Below are positions 490 to 43,448 of a DNA stretch of 64,000 nt, piece by piece. Every line of letters starts with the position of its first letter. Position 1 is the stretch's first letter. This stretch comes from an uncultured Thermoplasmatales archaeon (lineage in GTDB: Archaea; Thermoplasmatota; SW-10-69-26): the NCBI GenBank assembly GCA_964396185.1, contig CAYNEI010000013.1, positions 1,528-65,527 of the forward strand, written 5' to 3'. The notes under the pieces are model-generated. The model saw nothing but the letters and a program-made list of their open reading frames with translations. It did no database searches and had not been told where the DNA came from. The position numbers and the translations under genes are program-made.

Positions 490-659
490 CAACTCCCCCG
501 ACAACCCTGATCACGAAGGGCACGAAGGGGTCACCAAGGACGCGAAGACGTTCGGAACAGGAACCGAACAAGGGGACAGGGCACGGTTCCCTAGGTCTCC
601 TTGGTTCCCTTGGTGCCCTTTGAGCCCCTTCGTGTCCTTCGTGATCTAGGTCGTTGTCA
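487..659. repeat. Long imperfect hairpin filling the gap between two convergent genes
   Basis: gatcacgaagggcacgaagggg (509-530) pairs with ccccttcgtgtccttcgtgatc (625-646), one mismatch; outer tgacaac/gttgtca arms include both stop codons. Confidence 0.8.
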
Positions 660-1079
660 GAACGGCCCCTTCTCGGTGACCGGCGGCTCGCCTGCGCGCA
701 CGAACTCGTACCGCAACGGCACCTCGTGCTGGTGGCCCGAGCGGTACGGGCACCGGGAGCACCTTGTCCCCACCACCGTCTCCCCGCCGGTGAGCGTCCG
801 GTTCGCTACCCGGTCGAGCTCCTGCCCGCACACGGGGCAAGCCTCTCGGGCTGGCTCGTGGGTGGTCCCCGTGCGCACACGCACCTGCACGATCCCCTCC
901 TCGACGGCCAGCTTGCGCACCCGCTGTTCGCTCACCCGGACCTCATGCTCGCCGGTCTGCTGGAGCTGGGCCCGCACGAGCTGAGCCAGCCGGTGCTGAC
1001 TCTCCACGATGGGCTCTCGGGCCAGCACGGCCTGGAGGGCATCGATCACGTGGTCGTCGTCAGCGACCCGGTACGCCAC
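657..1079 (-). CDS. Hypothetical Zn-ribbon protein
   Basis: CPVC...CSRC pair; GTG at 1079 with AT-rich TATA-like cttaattaa about 25 nt upstream. Confidence 0.7.
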   Translation of the reverse strand: MAYRVADDDHVIDALQAVLAREPIVESQHRLAQLVRAQLQQTGEHEVRVSEQRVRKLAVEEGIVQVRVRTGTTHEPAREACPVCGQELDRVANRTLTGGETVVGTRCSRCPYRSGHQHEVPLRYEFVRAGEPPVTEKGPF

Positions 1080-1109
1080 ACTCGCGCGTAGCCCTGACAC
1101 ATCTTAATT

Positions 1110-1394
1110 AACCCTACTTGTGACGGATAGCGGAACCCGCGTCGCCCTGGGCGTGAAGCTCCGCAAGGAGGGAGAGGAAGGCAACCCCGGAGGGGTTGTC
1201 GACGGACCCCGACGCCGCGCGGCGAGCGCCCAGGGCGACCCGAAGGGCCGCGCAACAGGCGCCCGATGCCGCCCTCGACCCGGGCTGCGGCGCCGGATCC
1301 TCGAAAGGGCCTCCGGCCCTTCCTTGCGGTCCGGCTTCTTGCCTTCGAACGCCTGTCGCCCGGCGCGGGCCCGATATCCGCCACAAGTAGGGTT
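1110..1394 (-). ncRNA. Candidate structured ncRNA (unidentified; alternative reading is a MITE)
   Basis: 20-bp terminal helix 1110-1129/1375-1394 (G-U on minus strand), perfect 13-bp helix 1141-1153/1227-1239, UUCG/UCCG loops, crossing helices; intergenic. Confidence 0.6.
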
Positions 1395-1459: not shown

Positions 1460-2002
1460 GTGCCGTCGTTCATCGTCCACGGGCTGATCCCGCTGCTCCT
1501 ACTCTTGGCGCTGCGGCTCACCTCGGTCAGGGTCGCTCTCCTGATGCTCCCGTTCACCTGGCTGGCTGACCTGGACTACTGGTTCGGGTTCCATAGGGCG
1601 ACGACGAGCAACATCTTCTGGCTCCTCCCGTTCCTGCTCGCCTGGTACCTCTGGCGCGAGCACCGGCCGACCTGGGCCCCGTACGCCGCGGTGGCCTCCT
1701 ACTACCTGGCCAGCCACATGATCCTGGACATCTTCGCCGGCGGCGTGGTGCTCTTCTGGCCGCTGTGGGACCAGACGTTCTTCTGGCAGATCCTGGTGCT
1801 CGTGAACACGCAGACCGGCGAGACCGACGTGGTCAACGACCCCGGCAGCTTCGAGGGCGTCCCCGAGGTCGCGGAAGTCTTCGCCTGGATCAGCCCCTTC
1901 GAGGCCGCCATGCTGGCGCTCACCGTGATCGTCGTGGGCGCCACGCTGCTATACCGCCACTGGCCTACGCGCACGGTCCCGGTGCTAGAGGAGATCGAGT
2001 AG
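1460..2002 (+). CDS. Membrane-bound metal-dependent hydrolase (YdjM/DUF457-like)
   Basis: N-terminal H, ADLD, HRATT and HMILD motifs with hydrophobic helices. Confidence 0.7.
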   Translation: MPSFIVHGLIPLLLLLALRLTSVRVALLMLPFTWLADLDYWFGFHRATTSNIFWLLPFLLAWYLWREHRPTWAPYAAVASYYLASHMILDIFAGGVVLFWPLWDQTFFWQILVLVNTQTGETDVVNDPGSFEGVPEVAEVFAWISPFEAAMLALTVIVVGATLLYRHWPTRTVPVLEEIE

Positions 2003-41683: not shown

Positions 41684-41943
41684 AGCCGCCAGAAGTTCGG
41701 CGGCGTGTGAAGGTCAACCGCCCGGCCGACCCTGCGGCAAGGGTACCGGGCGTCGCATCCGGTCTTTCGACCTCCGGGTTCTACCCCGGCCATCCCGGTT
41801 GTCCCCTCAGGAAGCAAGCCGAAGCTTGTTCCCCTCCGGGTGTGTTCTCCATCCCCGCGAACGGGTGTAGGAGTGGACGCGAGTATGCCGCGCGTCTCTC
41901 CGAGATGCGGATGGTCCACGACGCAAGCGCCGTGTGCAACCCT
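41684..41943 (-). ncRNA. Unidentified structured RNA, copy 1
   Basis: Aligns end to end with 43188-43448 with compensatory changes; UUCG, GAAA and CUUG loops on the minus strand. Confidence 0.8.
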
Positions 41944-42120
41944 CCATGGGTGCCGCTTGCGTATCTAGTTGTCGGGGGCCCTTCCGCTGGAGCCGGTGGG
42001 GCGCATCCAGCCGTGCGCCTCGACGGTTCACGACCCAGGCGACGCTGCACGCGCCGGTACCTTCGCCGACCCCCGAGGGCATCCTTGACATGCCTCCGGT
42101 CCCCATGCGCATGTGAGCCC

Positions 42121-43134
42121 ATGATCGACGACCGCCGCCATCCGCTGCTCTCGAAGGCTGAACCCGTGGGTCAGATCGAACTCGGCCAGGGCTCGAGCCG
42201 CAAGCAGCGCCTCGGCCAGCGCCAGGTCCAGGAGGTCACGGCCAGCCAGGCGCTCAGCGACTTCACCATGGGCGGCAAGGCCAGTGGCGTGGCCTGGAGC
42301 CTCAACCCGTACGCTGGATGCCACCACGCCTGCACGTACTGCTACGTGCCCAACACGATCCACGCCGATCGGCGCCGCTGGGGCAACTACGTGTTGGTCA
42401 AGCGCAACCTCCTGGCTCTCCTGCGCAAGGAGCTCGATCGCAAGGATGTGCGCACGGTCTACCTGTCCACCGCCACCGACCCCTACCAACCCATCGAGGC
42501 CGAGCGCGAGCTCACCCGCAAGGCGCTCAAGCTCTTGGCCCGCCACGACTGGCCAGTCGAGATCCTCACGCGCAGCCCATTGATCCTGCGGGACCTCGAC
42601 GTGCTCGATCGGTTCACGAACCTGCGCGTGGGCCTGAGCGTGCCCACCCTGGACGACGAGCTGCGCGCCATCCTCGAGCCTGGGGCACCAGCCATCCGTG
42701 CCAGGCTGGACACCCTCCAACGCCTCTCCCAGGCCGGGCTCACGGCGTTCGCCAACTACGCACCGGCCTACCCGCTCACCGGTGAGACCACCGTGGAGGA
42801 CATCGCCGAGGCCTTCGCTGAGGCCGGGGTCCAGTGGGTCAACACCTCCTTCTGGCGACGCCGCGGGAGCATCGTGGTCCCCATCTGGGACCTGCTCAAG
42901 GGCACCGAGCATGAGGACCTGGCCAGCTTCATCGCCAACCGCCCTCCACAACACGAGCTGCGCGAAGAGCTCACGGAGGCCATGGACCGGGTGGGCCTAC
43001 CCCTGCACACGGCGTTCTACAACCCACCCTTCCAGATCGCAGGTTTCCGCTCCCGGTACAAGCAGCTCAAGCTAGGACAAGTGCCGATCGAAGCGCCAAG
43101 GCAAACCCAGCACCGCCCAAGCTTGGAGCGCTGA
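42121..43134 (+). CDS. Radical SAM protein, spore photoproduct lyase (SplB)-like family
   Basis: SLNPYAGCHHACTYCY (CxxxCxxC), STATDPYQP.E, LTRSPLILRDLD, VGLSV. Confidence 0.9.
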   Translation: MIDDRRHPLLSKAEPVGQIELGQGSSRKQRLGQRQVQEVTASQALSDFTMGGKASGVAWSLNPYAGCHHACTYCYVPNTIHADRRRWGNYVLVKRNLLALLRKELDRKDVRTVYLSTATDPYQPIEAERELTRKALKLLARHDWPVEILTRSPLILRDLDVLDRFTNLRVGLSVPTLDDELRAILEPGAPAIRARLDTLQRLSQAGLTAFANYAPAYPLTGETTVEDIAEAFAEAGVQWVNTSFWRRRGSIVVPIWDLLKGTEHEDLASFIANRPPQHELREELTEAMDRVGLPLHTAFYNPPFQIAGFRSRYKQLKLGQVPIEAPRQTQHRPSLER

Positions 43135-43187
43135 ACATCGCCCAGGGCCCAAGCCAGAAGGTACCGCAGGCTAGCCGATGAGGGATC

Positions 43188-43448
43188 AGCCGCCAGAAAG
43201 ATGGCGGTGTGTGAAGGTCAGACAGCCCGGTTCACCGTGCGGCATCGGTCCCGGGCGTCGCATCCGGCCTTTCGGCCTCCGACCTCTCAGCCGGCCGTCC
43301 CGGTTGTCCCCTCAGGAAGCGTGGCGAACCACGTTCCCCTCCGGTTCAGTTCCCCATCCCGTCGAGCGGGTGTGGGGTTGGGCGCGAGTATGCCGCGCGC
43401 CTCTCCGAGATGCGGATGGTCCACGACGCAAGCGCCGTGTGCAACCCT
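43188..43448 (-). ncRNA. Unidentified structured RNA, copy 2
   Basis: As copy 1; TATA-like ttata on the minus strand at about 43465-43469. Confidence 0.8.

Follow-up and report, generated by a model that had tools for sequence, protein, structure and literature searches.

The Correia elements of Neisseria (CREE or NEMIS) are gene-less bacterial elements of 100–155 bp, with terminal inverted repeats and an interior IHF site. They duplicate a TA dinucleotide, reside in a host without a transposase, occur in a long and a short version distinguished by an internal segment, give strongly folded transcripts and are inserted next to promoters. The ERIC (or IRU) repeats of enterobacteria are imperfect palindromes of ~127 bp, of which longer variants exist by insertions at fixed internal sites; we know of no transposase linked to ERIC and of no TA flanks. 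Among archaea, the SM1-type MITEs of Sulfolobus are related to the IS630-family element ISC1048, are essentially internal-deletion derivatives and insert at TA. This relationship to ISC1048 is said to have been described by Redder, She and Garrett in 2001.

The element studied here comes from an uncultured Thermoplasmatales archaeon and lies near the beginning of the 64,000-nt stretch of contig CAYNEI010000013.1 that we analysed (hereafter the window). It is very probably one copy of a family of non-autonomous mobile elements (MITEs). The family is similar to the Correia elements in being small and gene-less, in its terminal inverted repeats, TA flanks, strong fold and position near promoters, in its length forms created by internal segments and in a host genome where no transposase was found; it differs from them in size (285–460 nt), in its two opposed hairpin modules and in its core, and shows no sequence similarity to them. 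Like the SM1-type MITEs, it is archaeal and non-autonomous, the ends of one of its subfamilies (B) match an IS630-family insertion sequence, and TA is the probable insertion site; unlike them, it occurs in another phylum, has no sequence relation to them and has an interior that is not derived from the insertion sequence we found. With the Stowaway-like MITEs it has in common terminal repeats and hairpin potential, together with a putative TA duplication and a probable dependence on a DD(E/D) transposase of the IS630-Tc1-mariner group that acts in trans, but those are eukaryotic and are not known to have a conserved structured cargo common to families. Finally, the imperfect palindrome with a conserved centre and insertion-lengthened variants recalls ERIC/IRU, although ERIC is unrelated in sequence. 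MITEs are a kind of element already known, of which this family is, as far as we checked, undescribed: no description of the family or of its core was found in the literature by sequence words or by topic.

Including its flanking dinucleotides, the element occupies positions 1109–1395 (287 bp), of which the inverted-repeat span 1110–1394 makes up 285 nt. The first-pass annotation had described it as an orphan RNA-like element, closed by a terminal stem and pseudoknotted. The terminal stem is indeed present, as a 24-nt inverted repeat that is 92% complementary (1110–1133/1371–1394). Its left arm is the plus-strand A-type repeat ACCCTACTTGTGACGGATAGCGG (1111–1133), also encountered at C16, C104/C41, C25 and C10, and its right arm is a minus-strand repeat recognised by complementarity to the left one (1371–1393). 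On the left, a TA without strand (1109–1110) precedes the repeat here and in nearly all copies and is a putative target-site duplication. The right flank (1394–1395, likewise strandless) is TG where other copies have TA, and may represent a decayed duplication; a duplication is thus not demonstrable for the window copy, and, TA being palindromic, the dinucleotide may equally be an extension of the repeat. Next to the terminal repeats comes an inner closing helix, whose 5' strand CCCGCG (1136–1141, plus strand) pairs with 1364–1369 in the MFE folds; comparison of the copies revealed that this GCCCGCG/CGCGGGC helix is kept in those of types A, B and C.

The interior is made of two hairpin modules. 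Module 1 (1141–1239, plus strand) is a long hairpin closed by a perfect 13-bp helix, GTCGCCCTGGGCG/CGCCCAGGGCGAC (1141–1153/1227–1239), and carries the type I core hairpin, ..GCAAGGAG..GAGGAAGG-CAACCCC-GGA-GGGGTTG-TCGACGGA..GACGCC.. (1150–1232, plus strand), which is supported by covariation and matches the R1 covariance model with 65.9 bits (E = 1e-21). A mini-hairpin, CCC-GAA-GGG (1239–1247, plus strand), separates the modules and is present in all copies with different loops (GAA, UCU, CGU or ACG). Module 2, or 3' domain (1248–1364, plus strand), consists of the stems ACAGGCG/CGCCTGT and GCCGGATC/GGTCCGGC and of the hairpin AAGGGCC/GGCCCTT. The 13-bp helix and the ACAGGCG/CGCCTGT helix, the latter inside the detected inverted repeat I2, had both been correctly recognised in the annotation. 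With filters off, R1 also matches a diverged second core on the strand opposite to the first (1270–1355, minus strand; 18.1 bits, E = 1e-5), and the same plus/minus arrangement recurs in copy C9b, in the better assembled genome of a sister genus (G002, locus L182) and in elements of Phycisphaerae. The window element contains no transposase gene, and its ORFs are only of the spurious overlapping kind typical of high-G+C DNA.

The predicted fold is very stable on both strands, with an MFE of -175.4 kcal/mol (z = -7.1) for the plus strand and of -188.8 kcal/mol (z = -8.0) for the minus strand; for neither was any of 200 dinucleotide shuffles as stable. This strong RNA-like fold follows from the inverted terminal repeats, the two opposed and related hairpin modules and optional hairpin insertions. 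The preference for the minus strand that had been read from a G-U pair in the terminal stem fails across 11 copies, where MFE differences between the strands run both ways and neither strand folds consistently better. As to the crossing pairings between the two domains, the complementarities 1161–1172/1318–1329 and 1177–1184/1339–1346 are real, but they are not kept between copies and so give no support to a pseudoknot. For example, in C16, the copy closest to that of the window, the TTGCCTTC partner reads CGCCCTTC and is displaced by a ~75-nt insertion, and C9a lacks the 5' partner of the crossing pairing and reads CCAGG in place of CAAGG, without any compensating substitution. The crossing complementarities exist because two related core motifs sit in opposite orientation, R1 matching on both the plus and the minus strand; the 'pseudoknot' pairings are a by-product of these two hairpin modules. 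The view that the element matches no known RNA family was correct. Rfam 15 at gathering threshold, run over the whole window, gave no match at the element, a permissive scan (E <= 10) of positions 1000–1500 returned a chance miRNA match and nothing else, and eight core-bearing bacterial loci had no match at E <= 1. Readings of the core as a K-turn, a loop E or an SRP helix 8 were rejected on inspection by eye.

The element is not an orphan. A census of its own genome (an assembly of 3.17 Mb in 181 contigs, 89.5% complete, ~68% G+C), performed with BLAST and an iterated nhmmer profile, identified 15 places with family sequence. They comprise at least 11 full copies of 285–461 nt with defined ends, all with arms of 25–35 bp, a copy split across two contig ends (C104 and C41), further copies cut by contig ends (C137 and C90) and short left-end remnants (C10 and C25); R1 has 16 matches in this genome. 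Despite the ~68% G+C, TA is found at both ends of C16, C9a, C18, C120, C22, C2 and C3, that is, TA...TA in most other copies as against TA...TG in the window copy. Every copy is intergenic, next to unrelated housekeeping or surface-protein genes, and no recurrent partner gene (reverse transcriptase, TnpB or nuclease) was seen among the neighbours of all copies. Two independent Logan assemblies, from other samples, begin within the element at window position 1351, as expected of a repeat.

C16 shares 96–97% identity with the window copy over their common terminal parts and is longer by 160 nt, owing to three hairpin-sized insertions; by their similarity the two appear to be recent copies, and hairpin-sized indels generally distinguish copies from each other. 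The helices change in a compensatory manner. The 13-bp helix covaries in C9a, C9b and C137; across the copies it reads GTCGCCCTGGGCG, GTCGGCGTGGGCG, GGCGGCGTGAGCG or GTGGCCCGTGAAC, each with a matching partner, and the module 2 hairpin changes between subfamilies from AGGGCC/GGCCCT to GTAGCC/GGCTAC or GTACGC/GCGTAC. The consensus obtained by RNAalifold on a MAFFT alignment of the 3' domain was partly wrong, because the subfamilies differ in helix register. Textbook MITE families show the opposite of the pattern seen here, in which the interior is conserved and the ends vary, and true compensatory changes in the interior helices imply selection on a folded single strand, either RNA or DNA; transposase binding alone is insufficient to explain them.

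The window copy lies between a 147-aa gene (657–1100, minus strand) and a gene for a 180-aa membrane protein (1460–2002, plus strand). In each of the five other genomes of the same family, which represent three genera, these two genes and hjc are in synteny. The search for homologs at this locus, proposed in the first-pass annotation, found no element at the syntenic site in any of the five: the divergent starts are 69–98 bp apart, with no family member in between, as against 359 bp in the window, which corresponds to a spacer of ~72 bp plus the 287-bp element. Since the syntenic spacers are empty, the window copy is a lineage-specific insertion. Moreover, when two species of one genus are compared, their copies have no flanks in common and agree in the core only; together with the empty sites, this indicates that the element comes and goes and is not a conserved gene at the locus.

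The insertion point is abutted by TTAATTAA (1103–1110, minus strand), which probably serves the divergent 147-aa gene as a TATA-like box and to which we assign a promoter role by inference. The spacer of the relatives keeps TTAAG, at the place equivalent to TTAATTAA, and CTCATAA, which probably represent the two TATA-like boxes. The element lies between the two box positions, directly against TTAATTAA; its insertion would have placed it between the core promoters of two divergent genes, beside an AT-rich TATA-like box. For the 147-aa gene itself, the in-frame GTG at 1079, ~24 nt from TTAATTAA in a leaderless layout, is the probable start, and not the GTG at 1100; alignments of the relatives to its protein begin at residues 4–8.

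Several subfamilies could be distinguished by unrelated terminal repeats, namely A (ACCCTACTTGTG...), B (GACTKCCGGAC...), C (TGMCTCCYGGAKG...) and others. The B-type ends, TAGACTGCCGGAC, match a 1,132-bp IS630-family transposon of the sister genus, and in G002 the B-type end occurs 76 times, versus 11 for a control pattern. The complete transposon, at G002:C32:89545–90676 (546–1677 of locus L202), has B-type ends and is bounded by TA on both sides, with GACTGCCGGAC after the left TA and GGCAGTC before the right one; the left end can also be read as GACTGCCGGACAGAATGTGCGTAAC. Its orfA encodes HTH_33 and HTH_32 domains (E = 1.5e-20 for HTH_33) and is followed by an A7 slippery site, GAAAAAAACC, and by orfB in the -1 frame, which encodes a DDE_3 domain (E = 9.5e-23). 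The ends of the B-type MITEs in the window's genome agree with those of this transposon at 22–29 of 40 positions, versus 8–11 of 40 for the window copy. This resemblance of the ends ties the B subfamily to an IS630-type transposase. R1 has no match in L202, the transposon being without the core. Other G002 contigs start or end near similar ends (TAGACTGCCGGTC), and three such starts that we examined are without transposase.

We thus propose that a family member consists of two terminal inverted repeats of ~25–35 bp that would bracket one or two structured hairpin modules and no gene, and that it is most likely mobilised in trans by a DDE transposase of the IS630/Tc1-mariner type. The enzyme would bind the terminal repeats, excise the element and reinsert it at a TA, which becomes duplicated, and the interior core hairpin would be a conserved cargo, dispensable for transposition. 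For the window copy in particular, an IS630-type enzyme probably did the moving, a claim we make with less assurance than that of membership in a MITE family; it is suggested by the interior shared with the B subfamily and by the TA flanks. An autonomous element with A-type ends was not found in the window's genome, and a scan of metagenome contigs with the A-type end gave 14 matches, about the chance level and mostly on low-G+C contigs, among which there was neither a family member nor a transposase. A DDE_3 profile search of the window's 89.5%-complete assembly had no match, nor did the G002 element and its transposase when used there as blastn and tblastn queries. Because no transposase was found there, its copies are either stranded or served by an insertion sequence lost in assembly or binning.

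The core is the only part of these elements that is conserved between genera and between domains of life. Its consensus spans ~80 nt, ..CAAGGAG-nnn-CGAWGCAGG-CAACCC-loop-GGGTTG-TCGAWGCAG-nnn-GACGC... Genomes, one per species, were scanned with the pattern GGCAACCCN{3,5}GGGTTGTCGA; ~70% of the loci among the matches listed are chance matches in coding DNA, and at least 31–38 loci among the matches listed carry the extended core, at the tip of hairpin elements of 160–275 nt with perfect arms. Their hosts are Planctomycetota, Phycisphaerae, Chlamydiae and unclassified bacterial MAGs. Within a sample of the archaeal phylum, R1 was positive in 15 of 301 genomes, with at least 15 copies in G002 and 1–3 in a few others, and eleven bacterial genomes contain 1–19 copies each. 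Twenty cores of the archaeon and of these bacteria were aligned; the alignment supports a defined hairpin of irregular form, with 76.6% of the cells paired versus 63% in shuffles. The covariation score is 0.332, as compared with 0.129 in shuffles (none of 500 reach it) and 0.10–0.15 when the partners are slid. Within the 'internal loop', one pair is closed in every core, as AU (9 cores), UA (7), CG (2) or GC (2); the core also has one invariant G-U pair and two conserved bulged A residues. When this single invariant pair is set aside, G-U and A-C occur at similar frequencies in the core helices (22 vs 19). When elements are oriented by the one neighbouring gene transcribed into them, with genes crudely taken from ORFs, the orientation is sense in 8 cases and antisense in 9. 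Neither the orientation nor the wobble counts gave any sign of the core acting on a particular strand of host transcripts. Many elements carry the core in both orientations, so that a sense copy is present whichever way they are transcribed.

The bacterial carriers have terminal arms unrelated to those of the window family. Those of Planctomycetota and Phycisphaerae are TA-flanked like the archaeal ones, some with two opposed cores; in the Planctomycetota copies, the bases adjoining the bounding TA...TA differ. The carriers in one Parachlamydia MAG have CAGCAG...CTGCTG ends and 9-bp target duplications (ATGAACAGG and TCAAACAA, each found twice, besides several others that have 1–2 mismatches); they represent a different kind of transposition. 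In this MAG, Parachlamydia bin.582, two 72-nt derivatives of a 160-nt element (L237 and L238; G301:C313:9558–9630 and C252:4874–4945) lost the core by deletion between short direct repeats and stand at separate sites, each with its own target duplication, and G002 contains an 82-nt core-less element with B-type ends. Since core-less derivatives still transposed, the core is dispensable for movement and would be cargo. Searching for an autonomous element with the Parachlamydia ends gave the 160-nt and 72-nt forms only.

Some of the bacterial loci deserve mention on their own. L240 and L241 (G302:C233 and G307:C89, from Planctomycetota-type MAGs) are 272-nt TA-flanked elements with two opposed cores, the first of which has a different apical hairpin, GACCC/GGGTC; the genome of L121 is labelled Phycisphaerales. 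In a Chlamydiales MAG (L074, DATIJO010000166), a core-bearing element at 438–790 interrupts a second copy of the 5S rRNA gene, just after an intact one (274–388). At L094 and L163 in Parachlamydia bin.582, ORFs of 651 and 428 aa run straight through the inserted element, which could reflect either an in-frame insertion into genes, as for the Rickettsia palindromic elements, or a chance open frame.

Other explanations have to be weighed against that of a MITE family. If the copies were instead members of a multi-copy family of structured ncRNA genes, each encoding an RNA of ~290–450 nt closed by the terminal stem, this would account for the very stable fold, the compensatory changes in local helices between paralogues, the conservation of the interior under a variable closing stem, the invariant G-U pair and bulged A residues of the core, and the failure of any known family to match. 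This is nevertheless improbable, given that the element is absent at the syntenic locus in five related genomes, that copies in two species of one genus have no common flanks, that truncated remnants are present, that there is no strand preference and that two cores face opposite ways within one element; in addition, the flanks are TA, and the terminal repeats of one subfamily match IS630 ends. The ncRNA or conformational switch favoured in the first-pass annotation was right about the structure, which is real and whose local helices covary, but is not supported as an account of its nature: the element is dispersed in multiple copies, mostly bounded by TA, with no strand-specific wobble signal. 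It was the other reading offered there, that of a MITE, that was borne out by the dispersed copies, the terminal inverted repeats and the TA at both ends of most copies. A foldback palindromic repeat of the REPIN kind, moved by a Y1 (RAYT or IS200-like) transposase or by replication slippage and not by a DDE enzyme, appears more improbable still. The window's genome has no match to Y1_Tnp (PF01797), a related subfamily matches an IS630 element, and elements of 285–460 nt with terminal repeats of 25–35 bp and TA flanks are ten times as long as REPs, which are palindromes of 20–40 nt; against this stands the CTAC...GTAG contained in the A-type ends, reminiscent of the GTAG-tagged REPs of PMC3733652.

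Within the MITE reading, the question is whether the core is functional, that is, a folded single-strand module (an RNA, or a DNA hairpin to which a host factor binds) kept by selection for the benefit of the element or of the host. We regard this as rather unlikely, though a real possibility. In that case the window copy, besides being mobile DNA, would bear a new structured motif. In its favour, the core is conserved across the archaeal family, Planctomycetota, Phycisphaerae and Chlamydiae, on arms that are unrelated; it covaries far beyond its shuffles, with one pair found in all four Watson-Crick forms and never open; it rides on TA-flanked elements as well as on those with 9-bp duplications; and it is all that copies within one genus have in common. 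However, derivatives deprived of it still transposed, it has no orientation bias relative to genes and no excess of G-U over A-C beyond the one invariant pair, and a young module that had spread horizontally could give the appearance of conservation. Tentatively, then, the ~80-nt core may be an undescribed structured nucleic-acid motif, a cargo under selection that is carried, in Archaea, Planctomycetota and Chlamydiota, by MITEs with at least two types of transposition; it might act as an RNA that binds protein or processes itself, or as a signal in the form of a DNA hairpin.

For annotation, the MITE reading removes a false "novel archaeal ncRNA" and defines a repeat family that breaks the assemblies of this lineage, as the contigs C104, C41, C137 and C90 and two from Logan all terminate within copies. 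It also connects MITEs of archaea with an IS630-family element that has a programmed frameshift and comes from a sister genus. The hairpin module stays conserved while the ends of its carriers, their target duplications and their hosts change, and a covarying cargo common to bacterial MITEs of two transposition types is unusual. If functional, the module would exemplify a structured cargo that is under selection on MITEs and has moved from one domain to another; if not, it would mark a recent transfer of mobile DNA between phyla.

The window contains other repeats of a similar appearance. Between two convergent genes, the gap at 489–660 is taken up by a long palindrome whose arms have an 8-nt period and are of the CACGAAGG type (GATCACGAAGGGCACGAAGGGGTCACCAAGG ... 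CCTTCGTGTCCTTCGTGATC); it belongs to a different hairpin-repeat family. Further along, at 41684–43448 (minus strand), two near-identical structured repeats of ~260 nt bracket a radical-SAM gene; neither the family HMM nor R1 matches them, and they represent another family.
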